Source: Candidatus Saccharimonadales bacterium (lineage in GTDB: Bacteria > Chloroflexota > Limnocylindria > P2-11E). Taken from it: a stretch of 64,000 nt of DNA. Made by a program: the position numbers and the translations under genes. Shown here one piece after another: positions 10,452 through 60,568 of this stretch. The notes under the pieces are model-generated. The model was not told the DNA's origin, did not search any database, and saw only the letters and a list, made by a program, of their open reading frames with translations. The stretch is from NCBI GenBank assembly GCA_035493615.1, contig DATJHW010000085.1, forward strand, positions 1,363-65,362, in the 5' to 3' direction. Every line of letters starts with the position of its first letter. Within the stretch, counting starts at the first letter, position 1.

Positions 10452-11590
10452 TACCGGTCCACGTCGCCGAGCACGATGTCGATCGAGCCGAGGATCGCCA
10501 CGACGTCCGCGACGAGCCGGCCCTGAAGAAGCCACGGCAGGATCTGCAGGTTGTTGAACGACGGGCCGCGCATTTTCGCCCGGAACGGGTTCGTCGCCGA
10601 GCCGCCCGAGCTGATCATGTAGATGCCGACCTCGCCCTTGGCGCCCTCGACCGTGTAGTAGGCCTCGCCCTTCGGGCACTTCCACACGTGGCCGAGCCGC
10701 GCGCGCACGGCGCCACCGGGGAGGTTCGCGATGCACTCGCGCACGATGTCGATGGCCCGGCGCATCTCGCCGAGCCGCACCTTGTACCGCGCGTACGCGT
10801 CGCCCTCGACCGAGGTCACCGACTTGAAGCTCTCAAGCTCGGGGTAGATGGAGTACGGGCGGTCCTTCCGGAGGTCCCAGTCGACCCCCGACGCGCGGAG
10901 GATCGGGCCGGTGAGGCCGTACTGGGTCGCGACGACCCCGGGGATGCCGCCGACGCCGATGGTCCGCTCGAGGAAGATCTCGTTCGTCTCGAAGAGCTCG
11001 ACGTAGTCCCGCTCGATGTGCCCGGCGAACCGGTCGAGGAACCGCTCGAGCTTGGCCAGCATGCCCGGCGGGAAGTCGTAGAGCACGCCGCCCGGACGGA
11101 AGTAGTTGAAGTTCATGCGCGACCCGCAGAGCTCCTCGAACAGGTCGAGGATCTCCTCGCGGTCGCGGAAGCAGTAGAGCATCGGCGTCGTCGCGCCGAC
11201 ATCGAGGCCGTAGGTGCCGAGCCATACGAGGTGCGACGCGCAGCGCGACAGCTCGTCCACGATCACGCGGATGTACTCGGCCCGCCGCGGGACGTCGATC
11301 CCGCCGATGGCCTCCATCGCGCCGGCGTAGCAGTGCTCCTGCAGCATGTTGGAGACGTAATCGGCCTGGTCGGCGTAGCGGATGCCCTGGTGGAATGTTC
11401 GCCACTCGAAGATCTTCTCGATCCCCCGGTGCAGGTAGCCCATGACCGGGATGCACTCGACGACCTTCTCGCCCTGGAGCTTCAGCACGAGCCGGAGGAC
11501 GCCGTGGGTCGATGGGTGCTGCGGCCCGAGGTTGAGGATGAGCTCCTCGGTCTCGAGGCCCTCGTCGCTCTCGATGACCGGGAGCTTCAC
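10451..11590 (-). CDS. nuoD: NADH-quinone oxidoreductase subunit D (49-kDa type, not fused to NuoC)
   Basis: 379 aa: LNLGPQHPSTHGVLRLVLKLQGEKV...GYLHRGIEK...ends SIDIVLGDVDR. GTG start 11590 with GAGGAAG 9 nt upstream. There are no NiFe-hydrogenase Cys motifs. Confidence 0.9.
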   Translation of the reverse strand: MKLPVIESDEGLETEELILNLGPQHPSTHGVLRLVLKLQGEKVVECIPVMGYLHRGIEKIFEWRTFHQGIRYADQADYVSNMLQEHCYAGAMEAIGGIDVPRRAEYIRVIVDELSRCASHLVWLGTYGLDVGATTPMLYCFRDREEILDLFEELCGSRMNFNYFRPGGVLYDFPPGMLAKLERFLDRFAGHIERDYVELFETNEIFLERTIGVGGIPGVVATQYGLTGPILRASGVDWDLRKDRPYSIYPELESFKSVTSVEGDAYARYKVRLGEMRRAIDIVRECIANLPGGAVRARLGHVWKCPKGEAYYTVEGAKGEVGIYMISSGGSATNPFRAKMRGPSFNNLQILPWLLQGRLVADVVAILGSIDIVLGDVDR

Positions 11591-11641
11591 CGAGGCGGCT
11601 TCCTCGATCGCCGCACGCTCGCGGTCGATGGTGGTCAGCGC

Positions 11642-12226
11642 TCAGCCACCTTTGAAGATCTTCTCGCGAAGCCGGAGCACGCCCTCGGTCAATGCCTCGG
11701 GCCGCGGCGGGCAGCCCGGCACGTACACGTCGACCGGGACCACGGTATCGACGCCCTGGAGTGTCGCGTAGCTGTCCCAGAACTCGCCCCCGGAGCTCGC
11801 GCAGTTGCCCATCGCGATGACCCACTTCGGCTCGGGCATCTGCTCGTACAGGCGCCGCAGCCGCGGAGCCATCTTGTGGGTGACGGTACCCGCGACGATC
11901 ATCACGTCGGCCTGGCGGGGGCTCGAGCGGAACACCTCGGCGCCGAAGCGCGCGAGATCGTGGTGCGACGCGGCGCTCGCCATCATCTCGATCGCGCAGC
12001 ACGCGAGGCCGTAGCCGAGCGGCCACGGGCTCCGCGAGCGGGCCCAGTTCACGAGCATGTTCACCGACGTGAACACGATGTTGTCGTCGCTGGCGGTGAC
12101 GCCGGAGATCATCCGCGGCTCGTGGCCGCCCATCCCGGTCTGGGTGGTCAGCGGCCGGCGCTGGATGACGTCCTCTTCGAAATCGATGGGATGGACGTCG
12201 AGGGGGGCCTTCTGATCGATCGCCAT
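11642..12226 (-). CDS. nuoB: NADH-quinone oxidoreductase subunit B (20-kDa type)
   Basis: 194 aa with [18 protein letters not shown] and [11 protein letters not shown] (N2 cluster ligands). Confidence 0.9.
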
Positions 12227-12237
12227 CAGATGTCAGT

Positions 12238-13068
12238 CTAACCGTGGTTCTCGTGGCTTGCCCGCAGCAGCGCGAGCAGCGACGCATGCAACGGACGGCC
12301 CGAGGCGACGATCTCCGCGTGCTCGGTCCAGGTGACCGCCCCGCCAGCTTCCCGGACCAGCAGATCGCCCGCGGCGGAGTCCCACGCGGACCGTGACACC
12401 TCGAAGTACGCGTCGACGCGGCCCGCCGCGACCCATGCCAGGTCGAGCGCCGCGGACCCGGCTCTTCGGATGTCACGGACCTGTCCGGCGACGCGGGCCA
12501 GCACGCCCGCTTGCGCGGTCCGTTCGGCCGCTGCGTAGCTGAATCCGGTCGCGACGAGCGCGAGACCGGGGTCGCTTACGTCGCTCGTCGCGAGCCTGCG
12601 CTCGCCCAGGAAGGCGCCGCCGCCGCGGACCGCCGAGAACAGCTCGTCGCGCGGCGGGTCGTAGACCACGCCCGTCAGTCCGCCGTCCGCATCAGCGCAG
12701 CCCACGCTCACCGACCATTGCGGGATCCGGTACAGGTAGTTCACGGTCCCATCGAGCGGGTCGACGTACCACGTCCGGCCCGACGAGCCGGCGACACGCT
12801 CGCCCTCCTCGGACACGATCCCATCGTCGGGGAACGCCGCGCGCAGGCGGGCGGTGAGCAGCGCGTCGGCCGCCCGATCGGCATCCGAGACCGGATCCGT
12901 TCGCGTGGATTTCGAGCCGACGCCTCTCGGAGCGGAACGCGCGTGCTCGAGCAGGACGGCACCGGCCTCGCGGGCGGCCGCGCTCGCGATCGAGAGCAGC
13001 TCGGCCGCGGGTGTCAGGCCCAGGCTGGCGTCAACGTGCCCTGCGCGTCCCGCCAGTAGGGCGCCCAC
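12238..13068 (-). CDS. Inositol monophosphatase family protein
   Basis: C-terminal part of track ORF 12238..13542: SEEG...WYVDPLDGTVNY...GFSY...AALDLAWVAAGRVDAYFE...WDSAAG. The most plausible start is GTG 13068..13066 (in frame), which overlaps the HerA-like gene end by 55 nt. The start is uncertain. Confidence 0.75.
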   Translation of the reverse strand: MGALLAGRAGHVDASLGLTPAAELLSIASAAAREAGAVLLEHARSAPRGVGSKSTRTDPVSDADRAADALLTARLRAAFPDDGIVSEEGERVAGSSGRTWYVDPLDGTVNYLYRIPQWSVSVGCADADGGLTGVVYDPPRDELFSAVRGGGAFLGERRLATSDVSDPGLALVATGFSYAAAERTAQAGVLARVAGQVRDIRRAGSAALDLAWVAAGRVDAYFEVSRSAWDSAAGDLLVREAGGAVTWTEHAEIVASGRPLHASLLALLRASHENHG

Positions 13069-48018: not shown

Positions 48019-48462
48019 GTGCTCGACTTCGATCAGCTCGCGTTCATCGAGAAGTGGCGCCAGCGCGCGTCGCGCGGCGTCGTGATCGCGCTCGATGGCA
48101 CGCGCGGGGACATCGTCGTGACGATGCGTGCGGGCGAGCTCGGCGAACGGCTCGACCTGCGCGGCAAGGACGCGACCGGCGCCGTGCGCAAGGCGCGCCT
48201 CTCGATCGGCGACCGCGTGACGATGGCGATCGAGTACACGGCGAAGGATGTGACCGCCGGCGCGGGTGGAGGCGTGAGCGGCGACCTCGTCGCGCCGGGC
48301 GCGGTCGTCGAAGGGACGGTATCGGAGACGGGCGAGCTCACGGTCGTGGACTGCGGGATCGCGCTCCTGGTGAAGGGCGAGAGTCTGGCCGCGAAGACCG
48401 GTGACGTGGTGCGGTTCACGATCGCGGACGAGGGCCGCGCGTACCTCATCCCGACGCGCTAG
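48019..48462 (+). CDS. Hypothetical protein
   Basis: Protein-like part of track ORF 47827..48462 from in-frame GTG 48019 (LDFDQLAFIEKWRQRASRGVVIALDGTRGDIVVTMRAGELGERLDLRGKD...[18 protein letters not shown]). No family recognised and the start is uncertain. It converges on the peroxiredoxin gene, with a 17-nt 3-prime overlap. Confidence 0.45.
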   Translation: MLDFDQLAFIEKWRQRASRGVVIALDGTRGDIVVTMRAGELGERLDLRGKDATGAVRKARLSIGDRVTMAIEYTAKDVTAGAGGGVSGDLVAPGAVVEGTVSETGELTVVDCGIALLVKGESLAAKTGDVVRFTIADEGRAYLIPTR

Positions 48463-48922
48463 TCGGAAGCTTCTGCAGCTGTTCGGCGATCTCTTCCTCG
48501 TCGGGCACCTCGCGCAGCGTGTGGACGTCGATGTACCGGACGACGCCCTGCGCGTCGACGACCACGATCGCGCGCTCCGGCCGGCCGATCTCCTCGTTGA
48601 ACACGCCGTAGAGCCGTGAGACCGCGCCGTGCGGCCAGAAGTCGGAGCAGAACGGGTAGCTTGTGATGCCGAGCTGCTCCGCCCACGCTTTCAGCGTGTA
48701 CACCGAATCGCACGTGATACCCACGACCTGGGTCGTCCCCGCCTCGTATCGCTGTTGGAGCGACGCAAGTGCCGGAGCCTCGTGGTTTCAGGTGCCGCTG
48801 AACGCGAACGCCATGAACGCGACGACGACGCGCTGGCCCCGCAGGGCCGAGAGCGTGATCGTGCGGCCGTCATGCGCGCGCAGCGTGAAGTCGGGCGCCG
48901 GATCACCGACCTTCAGCGTCAT
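48446..48922 (-). CDS. Peroxiredoxin (AhpE/BCP-like, AhpC/TSA family) with in-frame TGA at the peroxidatic Cys position; probable selenocysteine protein
   Basis: ATG 48922. 44 codons, then TGA at 48790..48788, then 113 more codons in the same frame to TGA 48446. [99 protein letters not shown].... The track lists the halves as 48788..49132 and 48446..48724. Confidence 0.7.
48743..48787 (-). promoter_or_regulatory. Candidate SECIS-like hairpin region immediately 3-prime of the in-frame UGA
   Basis: mRNA: UGA AACCACGAGGCUCCGGCACUUGCGUCGCUCCAACAGCGAUACGAGGC. There are two alternative hairpins:
- CGAGGC-UCCGGCACUU-GCGUCG (+6..+27, one G.G mismatch, GG in the loop).
- A longer imperfect stem centred on UCGCU-CCAAC-AGCGA (+19..+45).
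Folded by eye only. Confidence 0.3.
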
Positions 48923-52241: not shown

Positions 52242-52318
52242 CGGGGTGTGGCCTAGCCCGGTTCAAGGCGCCAGTCTGGGGGACTGGAGATTCGCGGGTT
52301 CAAATCCCGCCACCCCGA
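52242..52318 (+). tRNA. tRNA-Pro (anticodon GGG)
   Basis: CGGGGTG/TG/GCCT-AGCCCGGTTCA-AGGC/G/CCAGT-CTGGGGG-ACTGG/AGATTC/GCGGG-TTCAAAT-CCCGC/CACCCCG/A. 77 nt. My hand fold gives a 6-nt variable region. Confidence 0.8.
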
Positions 52319-52366
52319 CAGCGAGTGAACTAGCAGGTTACTTCGCCGCAAGGCGCGCAAGCCAGT

Positions 52367-53662
52367 TCAGGCTTCCACCGCCGCCGGGACGCTGGCCGGC
52401 AGCGCGACATGGAACGAGGTCCCCTTCCCCACTTCGCTGTCGGCCCAGATGCGTCCGTTGTGCCGGTCGACGATCTCCTTCGTGATGTAGAGCCCGAGGC
52501 CCATACCGCCGACGTCGCGCGCGAGACGGTCCGGCGACCGGTAGAACAAGCCGAACACCCGCTGGAGCTCGGCCGGCCGGATCCCGATCCCGTGATCGCC
52601 CACCGAGAACTCGACCTCCCCGTCGCCGGCACGCTTCACGACGACGTCGATCGAGCCGCCATCCGGCGAATACTTCATCGCGTTGCCGATGAGATTGTTC
52701 AGCACCTGTTCGAGGTGGTCGCGGTCACCGCGGACGCCGAGCTTCGCTTCCGGGTCGTAGTTGAGGCGGAGCTCGTGCTTCGTGGCCATGAGCTGATGAC
52801 GGCGCATGACCTCGGCGATGAGCTCCGGGAGGTCGACGTCCGACACGCGCAGCTCGAGCCGTCCGGATTCGATCCGCGACACGTCAAGCAGCTCGTCAAC
52901 GAGGCGCGCGAGCTTCGACGTCTGGCGCTGCACCACCTCCAGCTGCTCGAGCAGCGTCTCCTCCTCTTTCTTCCAATCCGTCTCGCTCGGGCGTCCCGCG
53001 CCGATACGTCGCTTGATCCGGCGCACCGCGATCTGTACGAAGCCGGACATCGCCGTGATCGGCGTCTTGAGCTCGTGCGACGCGATCGAGAGGAACTGCG
53101 ATTTGAGCTTGTCGAGCTCCTGGAGCTTCTCGTAGCTCGACTGCAGCTCCGTCCGGGCCTCGTCGAGATCGCGGACCCGCGCCTGGAGCTCGGCCGTCGC
53201 GCGGGCGACCCGGTCCTGGAGCCCCTCGTTCAGGTCGTTGATCGTGCGGTTCGCAGCCTCGAGGTCCGCGACCCGCGCCCGCAGCTGCTCGCCGAGCTTG
53301 CGGCGCTCGAGGCCGCGGGCGACGGTCGCACGGAGCTCTTCGACGTCGGCGGGCTTCAGCATGTAGTCGTATGCGCCCTCGCGGAGGGCCTTCACGGCCG
53401 ACTCGAGCGACGCGTAGCCGGTGAGGACGATGCCCACGGTCTCCCGCGACTTGCGCCGGGCCGCGGCGAGGACGTCCATCCCGTCGAAGTCGTCCAGGCG
53501 AAGGTCGGTCAGCACGAGGTCGAACTCCTCCGCCTCGATCTGCGCGAGCGCGTCGTCGGCGCGGAGCGCCGTCGCGACGCTGTAGCCATCCATCTCGAGG
53601 ATGGCGGCCATCGTGACGGTGACGCTCTCCTCGTCGTCGACGATGAGGACCCTAGGCGGCAT
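52367..53662 (-). CDS. Hybrid response regulator / histidine kinase (REC-HisKA-HATPase_c)
   Basis: 431 aa. REC: VLIVDDEESV...DLVLTDLRLDDFDG...MLKP. HisKA: FLSIASHELKTPITA. HATPase: DRDHLEQVLNNLIGNAMKY...GMGLGLYITKEIV. Confidence 0.85.
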   Translation of the reverse strand: MPPRVLIVDDEESVTVTMAAILEMDGYSVATALRADDALAQIEAEEFDLVLTDLRLDDFDGMDVLAAARRKSRETVGIVLTGYASLESAVKALREGAYDYMLKPADVEELRATVARGLERRKLGEQLRARVADLEAANRTINDLNEGLQDRVARATAELQARVRDLDEARTELQSSYEKLQELDKLKSQFLSIASHELKTPITAMSGFVQIAVRRIKRRIGAGRPSETDWKKEEETLLEQLEVVQRQTSKLARLVDELLDVSRIESGRLELRVSDVDLPELIAEVMRRHQLMATKHELRLNYDPEAKLGVRGDRDHLEQVLNNLIGNAMKYSPDGGSIDVVVKRAGDGEVEFSVGDHGIGIRPAELQRVFGLFYRSPDRLARDVGGMGLGLYITKEIVDRHNGRIWADSEVGKGTSFHVALPASVPAAVEA

Positions 53663-55721
53663 TCGGCGGTGGACCTCCGATCGGCAGGGTCATGCTGAAC
53701 ACCGAGCCGCCGCCCGGGCGGTTGCGCACCTGAAGCCGGCCGCCGTGGCTTTGGGCGATCCCGAGGCTGACCCAGAGGCCGAGGCCGGTGCCCTTCTCCC
53801 CCTTGGTCGAGAAGAACGGCTCGAAGATGTGCGGCAGGTATTCCTCCGCGATGCCCGGCCCGGTGTCGGCGACCTGGATCCGGACCGCGTCCGTCCGGAT
53901 GAAGCCCGACGCCGCGTCGCGATGCGATTCCGTCGAGACGGTCACGAGCCCACCCTTCGGCATGGCCTCGGCGGCGTTCAGCACGAGATTGAGGATGACC
54001 TGCTTGATCTGGTCGGCGGAAGCCATGACCCGGGGCAGGTCCGGCTCGAGCTGCTTTTCGACCTTCACGTTGCGCTCGCGCAGCCGTTTCGTGACGAGGG
54101 CCTCGGCCTCGTCGACGAGCGCGTTGAGATCCGTCGGCACGAGGTCCGCGGCCGGCCGGTAGAAGCCGAGCATCTGGCGCAGGATCCGGCTCATGCGCTC
54201 GGTCTCTTTCATCGCGATGTTGAGGAACTTCGCGTTCGGATCGTCCTCCGGGATCCGCTTCACGAGGAGATAGAGCGCGTTCTGGATCGCCTCGAGCGGG
54301 TTGTTGATCTCGTGCGCGATCGACGCCGCGAGCCGGCCGGTGGCCGCGAGCTTCTCGGAGTCGAACAGCGCCTGCTCCAGGCGGCGGCGCTCGAGCTCGC
54401 GCAGCCGGCCGACGTCCTGCATGACGGACACGGTCGCGACCGTCGCGCCCATGGCGTCACGCACCTCGTTCGCGGTCACCTGCATCTCGAGCTCCTCGCC
54501 GGTGTCCACGTCGGTGAGCCGCAGCTCGCCGGATCGCCGGGGCGACGGGTCGAGCGACAGCTGGGCCAGGAACGAGGTGAACTTCGCGTCGTTGCGCATC
54601 GCGACCTGCGCCCGCCGGGGCTGGCCGAGCGGATCACGCGGCGGCTTGAACAGCCGTTCCGCCGCCGCGTTCAGGCTCACGATCTCCTCGGTGTTGTCCA
54701 CCACGATGATCGGGTTCGGCACGTTCCGGAGGACGAGGTCCAACCGGTCGCGTTCCATGCGGATCTCCTGGTCGACCGATTGCAGCCGCTGGATGTTGGC
54801 CGAGAGCTCCTGGGTCACGTGCCGGAGATCGGTCACGTTCTTGAGCACGGACACGACGCCCTTCGTGCCGATGCGGAAGTTCGTGGCCGGCGACGTGATC
54901 ACCTCGAAGATGAGCTCGTCACCTTCGATCGGGTCGACCAAGGTCAGCTCACGCGTGCGCTCGCTGGCGCTCTGGAGGTTCCACGTCGACAGCGCCGCCG
55001 TGAAGAGGAAGTTGTTCATCGAGATCGCGTGGGCCTTTCCAGGGCTGTCGTCCCTGCCGCTCTTGAAGAGCAGCTCGGCGCCGTGATTCGCGAGCACGAG
55101 CTCGTTCTGCTCGTCGGTCACGACGACCGGGTCGGCGAACGCGTTCACCATCCACCACAGCCATTCCTTCTCGATCGCGTGCGCCTCGCCACCATGGCGC
55201 AGCTCCGCCACGTCGCGGGCCTGCGCGAGGAGGCTGCTCGCCTGATTGGTGAACGGCGCCAGGGCCTGCACGTCCGCGTCGCTCGCGGGCGCGCCCTTTG
55301 ACAGGAGGACGACGCCGATCGGCGGCTGTCCGGAGCTGCGGAGTGGCGTGACCACGAAGGTCTCGAAGCCGAGCTCCGTCAGGACCTCGCGAGTCGTCTC
55401 GGTGATCCGCTCGTCGGACGCTGTGTCGTCGACGCGTTGGGTCACCCCGCTGTGCAAGGCGACCACGCTCGGGTCCTGGAGGTTGGCGAGCGGGACGGTG
55501 AATGCCTCGGCGATCTGGTCTGCGATCCCCCGGCCGAAGCGGCCACGGATGACCCGCGTGCGCTCGTCGACGATCGCCACGAGCGACCGCTCGTATCCGA
55601 ATGCGCGCGCGAGGCCGTCGAGCACCGGCAGGAGCGCCGCTTCGGGATCGCTCCCGGCCAGCAGCTCGCGAGGCAGCGCATCGATGTCGTCGAGCGCGGA
55701 ACGCCCGGTCGCTCCGGCCAT
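53652..55721 (-). CDS. Sensor histidine kinase with N-terminal GAF-like and PAS-like domains
   Basis: 689 aa, no obvious TM segment. H-box LAASIAHEINNPLEAI. N/G boxes ILNLVLNAAEAM, DTGPGI, GTGLGLWVS. 11-nt overlap with the downstream hybrid kinase. Confidence 0.85.
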   Translation of the reverse strand: MAGATGRSALDDIDALPRELLAGSDPEAALLPVLDGLARAFGYERSLVAIVDERTRVIRGRFGRGIADQIAEAFTVPLANLQDPSVVALHSGVTQRVDDTASDERITETTREVLTELGFETFVVTPLRSSGQPPIGVVLLSKGAPASDADVQALAPFTNQASSLLAQARDVAELRHGGEAHAIEKEWLWWMVNAFADPVVVTDEQNELVLANHGAELLFKSGRDDSPGKAHAISMNNFLFTAALSTWNLQSASERTRELTLVDPIEGDELIFEVITSPATNFRIGTKGVVSVLKNVTDLRHVTQELSANIQRLQSVDQEIRMERDRLDLVLRNVPNPIIVVDNTEEIVSLNAAAERLFKPPRDPLGQPRRAQVAMRNDAKFTSFLAQLSLDPSPRRSGELRLTDVDTGEELEMQVTANEVRDAMGATVATVSVMQDVGRLRELERRRLEQALFDSEKLAATGRLAASIAHEINNPLEAIQNALYLLVKRIPEDDPNAKFLNIAMKETERMSRILRQMLGFYRPAADLVPTDLNALVDEAEALVTKRLRERNVKVEKQLEPDLPRVMASADQIKQVILNLVLNAAEAMPKGGLVTVSTESHRDAASGFIRTDAVRIQVADTGPGIAEEYLPHIFEPFFSTKGEKGTGLGLWVSLGIAQSHGGRLQVRNRPGGGSVFSMTLPIGGPPPNAA

Positions 55722-55739
55722 CAGCCGGTCACCGAGCCG

Positions 55740-56045
55740 CTAGCGGCGTTCCGCGGCGCCGGCTGGTGCCGACGACGGCGTACCGGACATCCCGCCCGAA
55801 CCGATCGAGCCACCGGTCGTGCTGCCGCCTGGAGCGGGACGCGCGACCGTACCGGTGATGCCAAGCGCCTCGGCGTAACGCAGGTAGGTGTCGATCGACG
55901 CCACCACGACGCGGGCTTCGACCGTGATGAGGTCGATCCCGACGAGCGAGACGCGGATCCAGGCGTCGATGACGATGCCCTTGTCGAGGATGCGGTCCAG
56001 GACATCGATGAGGCTCGATCCACCAGCGGCGCGTTCAACGGGCAT
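55740..56045 (-). CDS. gvpA: Gas vesicle structural protein GvpA-type with Gly/Ser/Pro-rich C-terminal tail
   Basis: [55 protein letters not shown] is the canonical GvpA core. 101 aa. Confidence 0.85.
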
Positions 56046-56056
56046 CTTCTCTTCTC

Positions 56057-56407
56057 CTAGCGTTTCGGAGTCGCGGACTTCAACGTGCGTTCCAGATCGG
56101 CGATGCGTGTCTCGAGACGTCTGATCTCGGCAGCTCCTTCGCCACCACTCGTGGCAGCGGGGGCAGCGCCGCTGGCCATCGTCGCCGGCGCGACGAGGTT
56201 GCGGTCATAGCGCCACCAGTTCAACCCGATCTGTTCGGCCTTGTCGATCGAGCAGACCAGGAGCCGGATGCGGATGGTCAGCAGCTCGACGTTCGCGAGC
56301 GAGATGCTGATATCGCCTGCCACGACGAGGCCCTTGTCGAGGACCCGATCGAGGATGTCGATGATGCTCGTCGACGGTCCGGGGGCGACGCTTCGTGACA
56401 TGCTCAT
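56057..56407 (-). CDS. gvpJ: Gas vesicle protein GvpJ/GvpM-type (GvpA family)
   Basis: [53 protein letters not shown]. 116 aa. Confidence 0.8.
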
Positions 56408-56414
56408 TGGCGGC

Positions 56415-56735
56415 TCACAATAGCTTTCCGATCGGTCCGAGGCCGAGGTTGAGGTCGTCCGGGTCCACGCCGAACGCCTCGGCCATCTCTCTGACCTTGG
56501 CCTCGAGGCGCATCAGCGCGACACCCACCCGTTCGATCTCATCATCGGCCAGCGTTCCTCCGTCCATTCGTCTGATCGCCTGACGCTCGAGAAGCTGCCG
56601 AAGGAACTCGACCAGGGTGAGGACCAGCTTCGCCAACCCCTGCTCGACACCTTCGGGATCGACATTGACGCGGTCCGGCAGGAGTCCCCGAACGCGCTCC
56701 AGCTCCCGCCGCAGCTCGCCGATCTCATCCTCCAT
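56415..56735 (-). CDS. gvpK: Gas vesicle protein GvpK
   Basis: ATG 56735. VDPEGVEQGLAKLVLTLVEFLRQLLERQAIRRMDGGTLADDEIERVGVALMRLE is typical GvpK. Confidence 0.8.
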   Translation of the reverse strand: MEDEIGELRRELERVRGLLPDRVNVDPEGVEQGLAKLVLTLVEFLRQLLERQAIRRMDGGTLADDEIERVGVALMRLEAKVREMAEAFGVDPDDLNLGLGPIGKLL

Positions 56736-57423
56736 GGCCGCTCCCCAGCTCCTCGGTGAAGCTGTAGGGAGGCCACGGACCGCTGACCACGGCGCGGACC
56801 CCGTCGATCGCACCCGCGGCCACCGCCGCTCGCGCCTTCAGCGCGTCAGCCTCGTCCTTTTCGGCCAGCAGCGACATGGACAGCGCCACCTCGGCACTCG
56901 GGCAACTTTCGTGCCGAACGTCCGCTTGGTCGACCGCCAGCTGGGCTGCGAGGCGCGCTGCGAACGCGTCCCCGGCGGTGCGGCGGTCGGCGGTGACCGC
57001 GTGCATCGCGCGTTGCCGCTCGAGGAACGCACGGCCCGACAAGGCGACGGCATGCCCGCGGCCCTCGGTCACGGCGGCGTCACGCCAAAGGAGCGTGATC
57101 GCGATCTCGCGGCGGTCGGCGAGCCGGTCGACCGCGGCGGTGAACCGGTCCTCCGAGACCTCGAGCGAACGCCGCGCGGCCTCGGCGTCCGCCAGCCACG
57201 TCCCGAATCGGACCGGGAGGCACGGGCCGGCGTCGCAGAGCACCGCGACCAGGTCGTGGTGCGCGAACGCGTCATCGCGCGAGAGCTTCGGCTCGCCTTC
57301 CCAGACCGTCGCCCAGAGGCCGAGCTCCCCGGCCGCGATCTGCTCGAGTGGACGGCCGCCGACCCCGCTCTCCGGTCCGCCCGTGGCGCGCCGGGTGATC
57401 GCGTGGGCGAGGAGCCGGGTCAC
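56725..57423 (-). CDS. gvpL: Gas vesicle protein, GvpL/GvpF family
   Basis: GTG 57423 (GTGA overlap). LLAHAITRR...LPVRFGTWL...VVSGPWPPYSFT C-terminal signature of the L/F family. Confidence 0.75.
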   Translation of the reverse strand: MTRLLAHAITRRATGGPESGVGGRPLEQIAAGELGLWATVWEGEPKLSRDDAFAHHDLVAVLCDAGPCLPVRFGTWLADAEAARRSLEVSEDRFTAAVDRLADRREIAITLLWRDAAVTEGRGHAVALSGRAFLERQRAMHAVTADRRTAGDAFAARLAAQLAVDQADVRHESCPSAEVALSMSLLAEKDEADALKARAAVAAGAIDGVRAVVSGPWPPYSFTEELGSGHGG

Positions 57424-57617
57424 TTCTTGCGCGCCTCCAGCTGGGCGATCGATTCGGTCGCGGCGAGGATCACGTTGAGCCCCAGGTAGATCAGGTCTAC
57501 GCCGGCCACGGAGATGGTCGCCTCGCCGGTGATGACGACGCCGCGATTGAGCAGCCGATCCGCGAGGTCCAGCACGCTGAGCTCCTCGTCCGGCAGGGCG
57601 GCGAGCCGGCCGGTCAT
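57420..57617 (-). CDS. gvpS: Small GvpA-family protein (GvpS-like)
   Basis: ATG 57617 (ATGA overlap). LSVLDLADRLLNRGVVITGEATISVAGVDLIYLGLNVILAATESI. 65 aa. Confidence 0.75.
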   Translation of the reverse strand: MTGRLAALPDEELSVLDLADRLLNRGVVITGEATISVAGVDLIYLGLNVILAATESIAQLEARKK

Positions 57618-58399
57618 GAGAGCTCGACCGTGGCGAAGCGATACGCGGGCCACGGACCGCTGAGCTCCAGCGCGTAGCCGCGCGCATCCCACCGCTTGAC
57701 GTACGCCGTGATGATCCCGTCGAGCTCGATGCCGGCGTCGCGACGTGCGAGCACCGAGAACCGCGCGAGCATCCCGCCGCCGGCATCTTCGACGAGCGGC
57801 TCGCGGAACAGTCGCATCTGCGCGCGCTCGAACGCCTCGGTCGCGTCGACGATGGCCGCTGCGTCGGCCGCACGGAGCTCCGTCCGCTTCGTCTCATCGA
57901 GCTGGCGCGTGAGCAGGTAGCCGCGTCCGGGCGGGGCCGCCTCGATCTCCGAACGCAGCGCGCGGAGCGGCTCGCTCTCCTCCTCGAGCCGCGCGAGCGC
58001 CTTCGCCCTGTCGCGGCGAACGACGGCGATCCACTCCGCCCGGCCTCGCAGCGCTTCGAACCGCGGCCCCATCTCCGCGGCGCGCTCCGCGAGCATGCGC
58101 GCGACGCCCGGGGTGTCGCGGAACACCGTCCCGAATGAGAGCGGCACGAGCGGATCGCAGACGGCCGCGAGCGCCGCGTTCACCTCTTGATGACGCACCG
58201 CGCGCGGAGTGAGCCATTCCATGTCGGCGAGGTGTGCGTTCAGGGGCTCCTCCGCGTATTCGCGCTCCGGCACGTCGCTCACGAATGCCGCCAGGTCGCC
58301 CGCGCCGACCGTCCGGACGGCGCCGTCGTCGAGCCCGCGGAGCCCAGCGGGCGCGGTGCTGCCGGCGCGCGCGATCGCGTACACGTAGACCAGGCTCAC
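57614..58399 (-). CDS. Gas vesicle protein, GvpF/GvpL family (second paralogue)
   Basis: MSLVYVYAIAR...VPLSFGTVF...LSGPWPAYRFATV. 261 aa. Confidence 0.8.
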   Translation of the reverse strand: MSLVYVYAIARAGSTAPAGLRGLDDGAVRTVGAGDLAAFVSDVPEREYAEEPLNAHLADMEWLTPRAVRHQEVNAALAAVCDPLVPLSFGTVFRDTPGVARMLAERAAEMGPRFEALRGRAEWIAVVRRDRAKALARLEEESEPLRALRSEIEAAPPGRGYLLTRQLDETKRTELRAADAAAIVDATEAFERAQMRLFREPLVEDAGGGMLARFSVLARRDAGIELDGIITAYVKRWDARGYALELSGPWPAYRFATVELS

Positions 58400-58734
58400 C
58401 CGGGGCGGTCGAGCTCCTCGGGGGTCTCGATCACGGCAACACGTTCGTCCCCGGTCTCGGAGAGCAGGCCAGCCAGCTGCTCTTCGGCGAGCTGCCGGCG
58501 GTAGGCCTTGATCTCGGAGTACCGCGCGAGGAGCGGAGCCTCCTGGCGGCGGAACTCGGCTTCGTCGATCTCGCCCTCCTCGAAGCGCAGGTTGAGGAGC
58601 ATGAGGTCCTCTTTCACCGCGGTGTCGTCGGTCATCTCCTGCTCGGCCATGTCGATGACCTGCTGCAGGCAGTACCGGATGCCTGCCGCCGGGAGCGAGT
58701 ACGGAAGTGTGAGCAGCTTGCCAAGGCCGAACAC
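58396..58734 (-). CDS. gvpG: Gas vesicle protein GvpG
   Basis: MFGLGKLLTLPYSLPAAGIRYCLQQVIDMAEQEMTDD...LNLRFEEGEIDEAEFRRQEAPLL is GvpG-like. Confidence 0.8.
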   Translation of the reverse strand: MFGLGKLLTLPYSLPAAGIRYCLQQVIDMAEQEMTDDTAVKEDLMLLNLRFEEGEIDEAEFRRQEAPLLARYSEIKAYRRQLAEEQLAGLLSETGDERVAVIETPEELDRPG

Positions 58735-58737
58735 GGC

Positions 58738-59556
58738 CTAGACCGACGCCGAGCGCTCGAGCTGCAGGCGGATGGTCACGAAGTTATAGGGCGGCCAGGG
58801 GCCGGTGTACCGGAACGAGAGCGTGCCCTCGAACTTCTTGCCGATGTCGTGGACCTTCGCATCGAAGTGCTCCGCCTGATCGCGCCCGACGAGGAAGGCC
58901 GCGTTCATGATCATCTTGTCGCCGATCACCTTGTTGGACCGCGACGCGATCGCCGCGTCGCGCAGGTGGTCGTAGATCTCGCGGACGATCGACTCCGACC
59001 GATCCACGAGCGCCTGCTCGACCAGGCGGCCAAGCTGCATGCGCGCGAAGTAGGTCGACGACTGGGTATTCGTCTCGATCTCGGCCTTCAGCCGGCGGAT
59101 CTCCTCGTTCTGCTCTTCGATCTCGCGCAGGACCTGATCGCGGTCCCAGTTCACCTTGAGCCCGAACTCGAGCTTGTCCTTCATCTTGACCAGGACGTCG
59201 CGGAGCGCGTCGTAGGTGTCCTTCAGGAACTCCACGGTGTCCTCGTCGGTCTTGAACAGCGTGCCGAAGCTCATCGGCACCGGGGTGAACCCGTGCTCGT
59301 TCATCACGACTTCCTGGACGTGCTCGTGGGTGAGGGCGTTCTCGCGCGTCGGGTCGTACACCACGAGCGGCGCCCGGCTGACGACGGCAGCGAGATCGCG
59401 GTAGTGGACCGTGAAGACCTCATCGCTTCGCCCGCCGATGCCGATCTTCCCGAACGCCCGCGGCTCGCTCGACTCGATGATGCAGTAGACGTAGACGCCT
59501 TCCCGGCTGCCCTCGGCGACCGCCGTCGCGCCGCGTTCGTCGCTCATTGGACGCAA
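58738..59556 (-). CDS. gvpF: Gas vesicle protein GvpF
   Basis: GVYVYCII...VHYRDLAAVVS...PMSFGTLFK...YTGPWPPYNFV. 272 aa (the start may be the second Met at 59547). Confidence 0.85.
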   Translation of the reverse strand: MRPMSDERGATAVAEGSREGVYVYCIIESSEPRAFGKIGIGGRSDEVFTVHYRDLAAVVSRAPLVVYDPTRENALTHEHVQEVVMNEHGFTPVPMSFGTLFKTDEDTVEFLKDTYDALRDVLVKMKDKLEFGLKVNWDRDQVLREIEEQNEEIRRLKAEIETNTQSSTYFARMQLGRLVEQALVDRSESIVREIYDHLRDAAIASRSNKVIGDKMIMNAAFLVGRDQAEHFDAKVHDIGKKFEGTLSFRYTGPWPPYNFVTIRLQLERSASV

Positions 59557-59559
59557 ATA

Positions 59560-59790
59560 CTACGTCGCGAGATTGAGGAACTCGCGCGTGAAGCCGTACA
59601 GCTTCTCGCGATCCTCGCGCAGCGCGGGGCGCAATCCGTAGTGATTGATCACCCGGATCTGGGCGGCCGTCCACTCCTTCCAGCACTCGGCGCAGACCCG
59701 CTGCTCGATCTCGTTCCCGAGCGCGCCGGGCAGGCCGGTCTTGCCCGCGCCCTCGCGAGTGTTGCCGCAGCGCGCACATGTGACCGTCAT
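59560..59790 (-). CDS. YggX-family Fe(2+)-trafficking / oxidative-damage protection protein
   Basis: 76 aa. VTCARCGNTREGAGKTGLPGALGNEIEQRVCAECWKEWTAAQIRVINHYGL...REFL is collinear with E. coli YggX as I remember it (IFCTFLQREAEG...[31 protein letters not shown]). Confidence 0.7.
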   Translation of the reverse strand: MTVTCARCGNTREGAGKTGLPGALGNEIEQRVCAECWKEWTAAQIRVINHYGLRPALREDREKLYGFTREFLNLAT

Positions 59791-60119
59791 CTGACAAGAC
59801 CGAACCGGCCGATCGGCGCGTACCGGAAGACCGGGCGGCCGACCACGGCCGAGCCGGGGATCGGCCCGAACTGGCGGGAATCGGTCGATTCGGCGGGATC
59901 GGCGTGGTCGCCCTGGATGGTCACTCCGTCCGGTGCCACCGACCGGACGCGCTTCACGAGCAGCCGTTCCGGCTCGCGCGGGTCCGCCGCCACGACGACC
60001 TCGCCGGGACGCGGCGGCCGGCGGAGCCGGCGGACAAGGAGCCAGTCGCCGTCGCGGAAGGTCGGCTCCATGCTCTGTCCGGCGACGGCGACCCTGAACA
60101 GTGCCGTCGCCGGTCTCAC
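59787..60119 (-). CDS. sodX: S26-type signal-peptidase-like protease, probable Ni-SOD maturation protease
   Basis: GTG 60119 (GTGA overlap with the sodN stop). VAVAGQSMEPTFRDGDWLLV...LVKRV...GDHADPAESTDSRQFGPI. Position directly after sodN. Confidence 0.75.
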   Translation of the reverse strand: MRPATALFRVAVAGQSMEPTFRDGDWLLVRRLRRPPRPGEVVVAADPREPERLLVKRVRSVAPDGVTIQGDHADPAESTDSRQFGPIPGSAVVGRPVFRYAPIGRFGLVR

Positions 60120-60526
60120 TTCTTGGTGGCCCAGAAGATGTCGGCGATCTCCTTGACCGCCGCCTGCAGATCGGCCGCGGCCTTCGCGTCGATGCTCTGC
60201 TTGTTCTTCGAGCAGAGCTTCGCGGCCGTCCAGAACGTGTCGTGGAGCTTCGGGTACTTCTCGAGGTGCTCGGGCTTGAAGTAGTCGGTCCAAAGGATGA
60301 GCAGCTCCTTCTTGCAGATCTGAGCGTGCTCCTCCTTCACCGCGACCGAGCGGATGTACGTGTTGCGGCTCGCGTCATCCCCGCCCGTCGATCCGGTGAT
60401 CTTCTCGACCATCTTCGCCACGGTCTGTGCGGCGATCGTCGCGGCCGTGGGGTCGTAGATGCCACACGGGATGTCGCAGTGAGCATGCGCCACGAGGCGC
60501 GGCGCGAGGATCGAGCGCAGGTCCAT
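60116..60526 (-). CDS. sodN: Nickel-containing superoxide dismutase
   Basis: MDLRSILAPRLVAHA leader followed by the Ni-hook HCDIPCGIYDP. 136 aa. GGAGGA 6 nt upstream of the ATG. Confidence 0.9.
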   Translation of the reverse strand: MDLRSILAPRLVAHAHCDIPCGIYDPTAATIAAQTVAKMVEKITGSTGGDDASRNTYIRSVAVKEEHAQICKKELLILWTDYFKPEHLEKYPKLHDTFWTAAKLCSKNKQSIDAKAAADLQAAVKEIADIFWATKK

Positions 60527-60568
60527 GAGTCGTCCTCCCCGGTGATGTGCTCCGGATTATGGGCGCGG

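Follow-up and report, generated by a model that had tools for sequence, protein, structure and literature searches.

Gas-vesicle gene clusters are well known in aquatic microbes and poorly understood in soil bacteria. In Streptomyces coelicolor the gvp cluster has no gvpN and vesicles have never been seen, and the GvpA of this species is described as significantly different from the GvpA of vesicle-forming organisms (PMC4982088). Serratia gvpN mutants make small bicones only (PMC4982088), the Serratia gvpA1 operon is expressed in response to low oxygen supply (PMC6617781), and the Chloroflexales that form gas vesicles reportedly possess gvpA and gvpN (PMC7332563). Here we describe a gas-vesicle cluster lying next to nickel superoxide dismutase (Ni-SOD) genes in a 64,000-nucleotide stretch of contig DATJHW010000085.1, referred to below as the window; all positions are those of the window. 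Thirteen co-directional open reading frames (ORFs) fill its minus strand from 60526 to 52367: sodN, sodX, yggX, eight gvp genes and two soluble histidine kinases, HK1 and HK2. A first-pass annotation had taken them for a single transcription unit. Comparison with related loci showed that the conserved unit is the gvp genes together with the two kinases, and that the 7.2-kb stretch 59547-52367 is a presence/absence cassette between yggX and tRNA-Pro(GGG). Our preferred explanation, held with some confidence, is that autonomous units lie juxtaposed head to tail in this array, an arrangement specific to the lineage, and that they have probably at least two, and perhaps three, promoters. The adjacency itself is real, is inherited in 29 species-level genomes and is undescribed in the searched literature: in keeping with the first-pass annotation, full-text searches found no description of sodN-gvp linkage, and they found none of gvp genes in Limnocylindria.

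The genes of the array, and the tRNA gene at its downstream edge, are as follows.

60116-60526, minus strand: sodN, Ni-SOD precursor, 136 aa (Pfam Sod_Ni, 160.8 bits)
59787-60119, minus strand: sodX, S26-type peptidase, 110 aa, predicted Ni-SOD maturation protease (Pfam Peptidase_S26, 60.8 bits, and S24)
59560-59790, minus strand: yggX, Fe(II)-trafficking / oxidative-damage family, 76 aa, four-cysteine variant (Pfam Iron_traffic, 48.5 bits; cut-off 27)
58738-59547, minus strand: gvpF1, GvpF/L family, 269 aa from the conserved ATG (Pfam GvpL_GvpF, 249 bits; PDB 6l5d, 4qsg)
58396-58734, minus strand: gvpG, 112 aa (Pfam GvpG, 65.5 bits)
57614-58399, minus strand: gvpF2, GvpF/L family, 261 aa (Pfam GvpL_GvpF, 169 bits)
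57420-57617, minus strand: gvpS, small GvpA/J/M-family protein, 65 aa (Pfam Gas_vesicle, 50.7 bits)
56725-57423, minus strand: gvpL, GvpF/L family, 232 aa (Pfam GvpL_GvpF, 122 bits)
56415-56735, minus strand: gvpK, 106 aa (Pfam GvpK, 118.9 bits)
56057-56407, minus strand: gvpJ, GvpA family, 116 aa (Pfam Gas_vesicle, 60.8 bits)
55740-56045, minus strand: gvpA, canonical shell protein, 101 aa (Pfam Gas_vesicle, 61.8 bits)
53652-55721, minus strand: HK1, soluble GAF-PAS-PAS-HisKA-HATPase kinase, 689 aa, phospho-acceptor His470 (Pfam)
52367-53662, minus strand: HK2, soluble REC-HisKA-HATPase kinase, 431 aa, overlapping HK1 by 11 nt (Pfam)
52242-52319, plus strand: tRNA-Pro(GGG), convergent with the array, bordering the gvp-kinase cassette on its downstream side and placed immediately after yggX in cassette-free genomes

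The GC content at third codon positions is of coding type (0.79-0.94) across all 13 ORFs, and every one of the 13 proteins exceeded the curated Pfam cut-offs, which confirmed the identities first assigned to them. From sodN to HK2 the junctions measure -4, -4, 3, 3, -4, -4, -4, -11, 7, 11, 18 and -11 nt (negative values are overlaps), and recomputation reproduced each value given in the first-pass annotation. The gap of 3 nt between yggX and gvpF1 belongs to a TTG at 59556; because several relatives have, by our own reading of the junction sequences, no in-frame start codon upstream of the conserved ATG at 59547, this ATG was taken as the start of gvpF1. The gap is then 12 nt, so that the limit of 18 nt claimed for all junctions stands and the figure of 3 nt does not. 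Outside the array, 12 of the 29 co-directional junctions in the window are also 18 nt or shorter (41%, a background obtained with a crude gene caller biased toward small gaps). Tight packing is thus common in this genome, yet a run of 12 tight junctions is unusual (p ~2.5e-5 at this background, assuming independence).

On its 5' side the array is separated by 42 nt from a co-directional secreted CarboxypepD_reg gene (CPDreg), with gpsA and plsY further upstream on the same strand. A simple consensus scan of the coding strand from 50.9 to 64 kb found no intrinsic terminator, and a scan of the same region for sigma-70 consensus promoters, which is blind to promoters having only a TAnnnT box, also found none. 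No riboswitch or small RNA was detected in the array, the Rfam gathering score being reached by three tRNAs only. The common strand, the short gaps and the absence of an internal terminator, as far as a consensus search can tell, all speak for the arrangement first proposed, in which the 13 genes are transcribed from a single promoter before sodN under selection for co-expression and the kinases provide control by oxygen or redox state. The low-oxygen response of gas-vesicle expression in Serratia makes such an oxygen logic plausible (PMC6617781).

Conservation and separability of the modules

The closest homologs of GvpF1, for which 7,709 relatives were scored, are named Candidatus Limnocylindria and come from soil metagenomes, and the window was accordingly assigned to an uncultured soil member of this group (Chloroflexota). 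The exact SodN protein was found on three other contigs, one of which repeats the order from sodN to gvpA. About 130 related loci were compared overall; a GvpF1-anchored scan of species-representative genomes, with the window proteins mapped by tblastn, yielded 54 loci. In 29 species genomes the order was collinear: plsY-gpsA-CPDreg-sodN-sodX-yggX-gvpF1...gvpA-HK1-HK2-(UDG)-CAP. When a few clear start-codon mis-picks are left out, the spacing in this block is -4 to 8 nt for sodN/sodX, mostly -4 to 29 nt for sodX/yggX and mostly -1 to 25 nt for yggX/gvpF1; it is 18 nt for gvpA/HK1 in most loci, and the overlap of HK1 with HK2 is kept in nearly all. Linkage and tight spacing in 29 species genomes favor a single operon, and the inheritance of the adjacency shows that it is no isolated accident of one genome, the possibility for which the first-pass annotation had proposed a synteny survey. 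The same survey found the modules apart in other genomes.

Within the sodN-yggX part, one locus carries a 3.6-kb insertion between sodX and yggX (L013), and another has sodN-sodX inverted while yggX-gvp is kept (L030). In 19 genomes the gvp-HK1-HK2 genes have neither sodN nor yggX beside them; 14 of these show nothing sod-related there, and in the other five sodX-sodN lies inverted 1.2-7 kb away. The genes upstream of gvpF1 in the unlinked genomes vary; visual inspection of the translations suggests that sigma/anti-sigma-like, LuxR-type and receiver proteins are among them. HK1 and HK2 come after gvpA in the 39 loci from which near-full-length copies were obtained, and this extends to a Chloroflexales locus whose GvpF1 is 68% identical. 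A single exception was met in L031, where HK1 reaches only 38% identity and is not followed by an HK2 on the same strand.

The converse arrangement was found on long contigs with a divergent YggX (L058-L066). These read der-plsY-gpsA-CPDreg-sodN-sodX-yggX and then UDG-HTH_17-CAP-AhpC, with no gvp genes or kinases and with tRNA-Pro(GGG) 8-33 nt 3' of yggX. In a YggX-anchored metagenome sample with 77 informative loci, gvpF1 came next to yggX in 52, the site was empty in 19 (tRNA-Pro or UDG next) and the context was of some other kind in six; sodX lay directly upstream of yggX in 69 of the 77. In four loci yggX stood without sodN-sodX and without gvp. The module tree and the backbone tree, both built by neighbour-joining, showed unlinked clades nested among linked clades, and the empty-site clade and the cassette-elsewhere clade took the same position in both trees, their contigs coming from different assemblies. 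The region between CPDreg and the tRNA is a plastic spot. The gene set is not inherited as a unit, and the functional tie of Ni-SOD to gas vesicles that had been drawn from a single unit loses its footing, as each module occurs without the other, sodN-sodX-yggX doing so on the identical backbone. Gas vesicles and oxidative stress may be linked in function.

Two metagenome contigs from two samples, both among the six loci of other context (L107, 3900-6943, and L110, 190-3450), are deletion derivatives in which yggX is followed by HK1 and then HK2 without gvp genes; HK1 aligns there from residue 130 and begins with PAS-A, its GAF domain gone. The kinase ORFs on both contigs are intact, and the kinases can therefore outlive the gvp genes. 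A second, independent decay was seen in L054, where gvpF1 fragments are followed by a truncated HK1.

The adjacency could also be incidental: a cassette that landed or survived beside a tRNA, insulated from read-through, in a region that rearranges rarely, would sit next to sodN-sodX-yggX with no cross-talk between them. Such an origin fits the collinearity of the whole plsY-to-CAP block in the same genomes, and also the position of the cassette, which abuts tRNA-Pro(GGG) and is polymorphic for presence and absence. It fits poorly with the inversion, loss or separation of sodN-sodX in several lineages, since the locus is then not poor in rearrangements, and with the lack of an integrase or of att-like repeats beside the cassette. 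A classical genomic island finds no support, as no integrase was found, no att-like direct repeat was seen between the yggX/gvpF1 junction and the tRNA-Pro side, and the GC content is that of the flanks.

Several observations on individual loci were made in the course of this comparison. In L005 (DATCPK010000011.1, 131-7400) yggX and gvpF1 are 93-94% identical to the window, and gvpG to HK2 (40-74%) match the sister clade; this locus looks chimeric, either as a natural recombinant at gvpF1/gvpG or as an assembly chimera. L023 (DASPWX010000213.1) is labelled as a metagenome-assembled genome of a Candidatus Bathyarchaeia archaeon, carries the full Limnocylindria-type backbone and gvp locus, and is probably mis-binned. 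L060 (DNA_vOTU_3067) is named as a viral operational taxonomic unit, and its content is the chromosomal housekeeping backbone. The orientation of tRNA-Pro(GGG) flips between genomes (L019, L061). In L061-L063 the gap of about 1 kb between tRNA-Pro and UDG is filled by a reverse-strand ORF of 263 aa with a faint LAGLIDADG match, and a LAGLIDADG-like ORF may account for a similar tRNA-UDG gap in many other relatives.

Predicted promoters and probable read-through

Four elements upstream of sodN, gvpF1 and gvpJ bear on how the array is transcribed.

60556-60561, minus strand: predicted -10 box of sodN, CATAAT, directly after the upstream stop codon and conserved in the window's clade
60533-60540, minus strand: Shine-Dalgarno (SD) sequence of sodN, GGGGAGGA, strong
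59557-59562, minus strand: predicted leaderless-type -10 box of gvpF1, TAGTAT, including the yggX stop codon, 9 nt before the ATG, no SD
56417-56422, minus strand: candidate second internal -10 box, before gvpJ, TATTGT, 9 nt before an SD-less ATG, within the last two gvpK leucine codons CTA TTG

The gap of 40-47 nt upstream of sodN is far better conserved than the neighbouring third-codon positions. Its sequence in the window's clade is stop-CCGCGCC-CATAAT-...-GGGGAGGA-ATG; the box is GATAAT in L014 and L051, and TGnTACAAC-type boxes occupy the same place in the sister clade.

A TANNNT box just before the start codon is an established signal of leaderless genes, Chloroflexi included (PMC3160421). 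The start of gvpF1 was found in one of two states among the loci, having either TAnnnT 7-9 nt before it and no SD, or an SD, often with a TAnnnT about 30 nt upstream. The box without an SD occurred in 18 genome loci and the two together in none, and the box/SD tally in the metagenome loci was 24, 26, 0 and 2. The same geometry of box without SD is present in lineages that have no yggX, and the hexamer is constant although the sequence of the 9-nt spacer drifts. Against a background of 0.0013 per position, TAnnnT in at least 7 of 9 SD-less lineages, by our own count, gives a binomial p of ~6e-16. Over about 0.9 Mb of these genomes, comprising all loci searched, TAnnnT peaks 6-9 nt before candidate start codons. 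In the window eight genes carry the box 6-9 nt ahead of a start codon that has no SD, and the 9-nt spacing recurs at two of these genes that head operons. Seven such starts in the window lie at positions other than gvpF1: 41977(+), 44468(+), 30444(+), 12226(-), 46695(-), 20816(-) and 4259(-). Judging from these motifs, leaderless-type promoters seem common in this genome.

The gvpJ start is the only other start in the array with leaderless box geometry. The codons that make up its box are rare, CTA and TTG accounting for 0.2% and 3.1% of window leucine codons (joint expectation ~5e-5). The box is conserved in the window's close clade and not in L013 or the sister clade, where gvpJ has an SD and an overlap, so it is a more tentative candidate than the box of gvpF1. 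Of the two genes that follow, gvpA has a strong SD, TAGGAG, and a strong SD in nearly all aligned lineages, and HK1 has a weak SD-like GGTGAYC in the gvpA/HK1 spacer.

In the sister clade TAnnnT stands exactly 6 nt before yggX, within the sodX/yggX spacer, and a TGATG couples yggX to gvpF1, an SD being located within yggX. On these signals yggX, not sodN, appears to head the gvp operon there. A predicted box would thus separate sodN-sodX from gvp in both clades, with yggX on opposite sides of it.

These results bear on the single unit of 13 genes in two ways. Its spacing holds and no terminator was found within it, and the yggX-gvpF1 coupling of the sister clade also suits it. The modules are found separately in many relatives, predicted -10 boxes are conserved ahead of gvpF1 and gvpJ, both of which start without an SD, and even the sister clade has a leaderless-type box between sodX and yggX. 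With these points and the HK1 sensor features given below, we judge one promoter serving all 13 genes to be quite unlikely. In genomes with leaderless promoters, overlapping genes in an uninterrupted row may still belong to more than one operon, as a -10 box can be concealed within the final codons of the preceding gene.

The preferred explanation of juxtaposed units would work as follows. The first unit, sodN-sodX-yggX (60526-59560), would have its own promoter with the -10 box CATAAT and a strong SD, seated in the housekeeping backbone der-plsY-gpsA-CarboxypepD_reg ... tRNA-Pro-UDG-HTH-CAP-peroxiredoxin. The second, the cassette of eight gvp genes and two dedicated kinases (59547-52367), would be read from the leaderless-type promoter overlapping the yggX stop codon, and the possible second internal -10 box (TATTGT) would drive gvpJ-gvpA-HK1-HK2. 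Since no terminator fits between yggX and gvpF1, transcripts from sodN probably run into gvp; such read-through would be translated poorly at gvpF1 because this gene has no SD, and any coupling of Ni-SOD to gas vesicles would for that reason be modulatory and not obligatory. The poor translation of read-through RNA at gvpF1 is also what an incidental neighbourhood would predict. The latter is nevertheless unlikely in our estimation, as there is no terminator or insulating structure between yggX and gvpF1, the 12-nt gap being too small for one, and the sister clade has evolved a true yggX-gvpF1 coupling.

Some points weigh against the juxtaposition of autonomous units. All of the promoters are predicted from motif, geometry and conservation, and the 9-nt spacing at gvpF1 and gvpJ is larger than the canonical 6-7 nt, implying a leader of 2-3 nt. 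Adjacency and tight spacing have been kept through deep divergence, with some proteins only about 40% identical, possibly under selection for co-expression; synteny is just as strong among the flanking housekeeping genes, so that conserved order alone does not discriminate. A functional link between YggX and the Gvp proteins is possible, given the fusion of yggX into the gvp operon of the sister clade. Finally, the trees are without support values, and the empty-site and cassette-elsewhere contigs could not be linked to the same genomes.

Properties of the encoded proteins

The alignment of SodN with Streptomyces Ni-SOD chains begins at His16, opposite their residue 1 or 2; the pro-peptide is therefore residues 1-15, reading MDLRSILAPRLVAHA, and the mature N-terminus is HCDIPCGIY. 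The Ni-hook motif His-Cys-X-X-Pro-Cys-Gly-X-Tyr is kept in all orthologs. Two SodN types, 41-45% identical, share the same position, one in L015-L025, L029, L048 and L050 and the other in the window's clade; both have intact nickel hooks, and the type of the window has a 5-residue insertion. The distribution of the types on the backbone tree is patchy and SodX does not show the same split, a pattern that suggests in-situ replacement or very uneven divergence. SodX has the Ser/Lys dyad of its family in the motifs GQS16MEP and VK56R.

YggX aligns along the whole fold to the solved structures 2mzy, 1t07 and 1yhd, the N-terminal cysteine included. Cysteines C5, C8, C33 and C36 (CxRC-x24-CxxCW) are invariant in 32 orthologs, and solved YggX proteins have only the first of them; the arrangement suggests a metal or Fe-S site. 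A word-based search found no YggX relatives outside the lineage, all detectable close relatives being from Limnocylindria. With a GTGA overlap between sodN and sodX and an ATGA overlap between sodX and yggX, the three genes form an ordinary, translationally coupled Ni-SOD operon.

The eight gvp genes comprise three of the GvpA family, three of the GvpF/L family, gvpG and gvpK, in the order F-G-F-S-L-K-J-A, so that the shell protein and the accessory families GvpF/L, GvpG, GvpK and GvpJ/M(S) are all represented. Through its residues 1-71 GvpA matches Anabaena GvpA 8gbs from end to end (E 5.5e-26) and also B. megaterium GvpB 7r1c; a Gly/Ser/Pro-rich tail of about 30 residues comes after this part. 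No gvpN was found in the array or elsewhere in the 64-kb window, whose P-loop proteins are a HerA-like ATPase and two ABC transporters. The outer scaffold protein GvpC and GvpO are missing from the window as well; none of the 13 genes, which fill the array with at most 18 nt between neighbours, matches these families. The Chloroflexales locus L046 has the gvp order and the kinases of the window, with the addition of a gene for an ArsA-type two-domain, GET3-like ATPase between gvpG and gvpF2 (10837-12963, plus strand). These extra 2 kb were considered as gvpN and rejected because they encode the ArsA-type ATPase; GvpN was not seen in the part of L046 examined.

In the preferred explanation the gvp genes would lead to gas-vesicle assembly. 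They might instead be cryptic or serve a purpose other than buoyancy, as proposed for Streptomyces, with no mature vesicles formed without gvpN, gvpC and gvpO. The missing gvpN-like AAA+ protein points this way, as the S. coelicolor cluster likewise lacks gvpN and shows no vesicles and Serratia gvpN mutants stop at small bicones (PMC4982088), and so does the repeated loss or decay of the cassette. The GvpA of this locus is canonical, however, unlike that of S. coelicolor. All eight gvp ORFs are intact, their proteins are recognisably conserved across all clades, and gvpN could be encoded elsewhere in the genome. The eight gvp families also appear to correspond to those of the eight non-regulatory Serratia genes reported to be essential, and this too was counted against a cryptic cluster. 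On this evidence a cryptic or non-buoyancy role is doubtful, though it deserves to be kept in view.

Both kinases are soluble, since hydrophobic segments are absent (the hydropathy maximum over 19 residues is 1.2). An AlphaFold2 model of the HK1 sensor half (predicted local distance difference test score, pLDDT, 79) placed GAF at 25-176, PAS-A at 181-296 and, after a long helix, PAS-B at 334-437, and PAS-A (~181-296) is the best-conserved part of the sensor. The H-box histidines H470 of HK1 and H196 of HK2 are invariant and are accompanied by the ATPase domains; the receiver of HK2 is complete, with DD9-10, D53, T81 and K103 conserved. These are the domains of a phosphorelay. No output response regulator, DNA-binding or other, was found in the array or the conserved flanks. 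The simplest reading of the pair is that HK1 integrates a cytoplasmic signal through the very conserved PAS-A and passes phosphate to the HK2 receiver and from there to a distant response regulator encoded elsewhere. One database protein, P0291, joins a Gas_vesicle domain to the HK1 domains, probably as an artefact of gene calling that merged gvpA with HK1 over their 18-nt spacer.

Cysteine is absent from HK1 altogether, and none of the histidines in residues 1-445 reaches 90% conservation, either among 40 sequences or in a second comparison of 28. A Foldseek search with the HK1 model returned generic tandem-PAS matches only, with TM scores of 0.2-0.3 and 13-18% identity (DosP, FixL, LOV-PAS, PpsR, NifL), and matches to PDB sequences were confined to the kinase core. 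With neither a conserved His nor a conserved Cys in the sensor half, nothing indicates that HK1 senses oxygen or redox state directly, and the oxygen- or redox-responsive control through the kinases that had been read from the array finds no heme-, LOV- or thiol-type signature to rest on. HK1 was accordingly rejected as a heme, LOV or thiol sensor on residue conservation; flavin or other ligands are still possible.

Downstream in the backbone, an AhpC/TSA-family peroxiredoxin gene (48446-48922, minus strand) has an in-frame TGA at 48790-48788, at the site of the peroxidatic cysteine (AFAFSGT[TGA]NHE). The TGA is kept in 12 of 12 peroxiredoxin orthologs from the fetched loci (tblastn; 61-76% identical), with the protein conserved on both sides, and the gene looks like that of a selenocysteine protein split into two ORFs by gene callers. 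A search for a selenocysteine insertion sequence (SECIS)-like hairpin after the TGA gave a fold no better than that of shuffled sequence (z = -0.79).

Significance and comparison with known systems

The locus adds undescribed gvp clusters in Limnocylindria, which are abundant in soil metagenomes. If vesicles form, a small natural set of eight genes without gvpN would be of interest for engineered acoustic reporters. The pair of GAF-PAS-PAS and REC kinases is a new kind of cluster-linked regulator, present in nearly all Chloroflexota loci examined. A bolder interpretation, which we regard as improbable, is that the cassette is a natural minimal gas-vesicle system, with eight gvp genes, a canonical GvpA and none of gvpN, gvpC and gvpO, whose expression is deliberately wired to oxidative-stress protection. 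The wiring would then consist of read-through from Ni-SOD in the window's clade and, in the sister clade, of the four-cysteine YggX recruited to head the gvp operon by translational coupling, the soluble kinase pair would be its dedicated sensor, and a rise to air-water interfaces in soil pore water would be coordinated with protection against superoxide and of Fe-S centres.

Among described gas-vesicle clusters, gvpOAFG-JLSK of S. coelicolor and gvpAPQBRNFGLSKJTU of B. megaterium are also from soil bacteria and share the families A, F, G, J, L, S and K with the present one (PMC9501494). The local order here resembles the F-G-L-S-K-J run of Bacillus, and like the Streptomyces cluster it has neither gvpN nor gvpC. 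It differs in that gvpA comes last, gvpO is absent and GvpA is canonical, and in having two kinases at its 3' end and a Ni-SOD operon at its 5' end. Serratia sp. ATCC 39006 also has signalling genes encoded with the cluster, GvrA/B/C (PMC4982088, PMC6617781), and in both systems there are three GvpA-type and three GvpF-type proteins, GvpG and GvpK. In Serratia the regulators, among them an NtrC-type sigma-54 activator, have an operon of their own, whereas here a GAF-PAS-PAS kinase and a REC kinase follow the gvp genes with no DNA-binding regulator; the gvpN, V, C, W, X, Y and Z of Serratia are absent.

The Ni-SOD genes resemble sodN-sodX of Streptomyces in having an N-terminal pro-peptide followed by the nickel hook and an adjacent gene for an S26-family peptidase. 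They differ in that sodX overlaps sodN and is followed by a coupled four-cysteine yggX, and in that SodN of the window is a derived type with the 5-residue insertion. YggX itself is like the E. coli and Salmonella proteins (1yhd, 1t07, 2mzy) in its Iron_traffic match above the cut-off and its whole-fold alignment; it is set apart from them by three extra invariant cysteines in a CxxC...x24...CxxC pattern and, in one Limnocylindria clade, by its predicted place as the first gene of the gvp operon.

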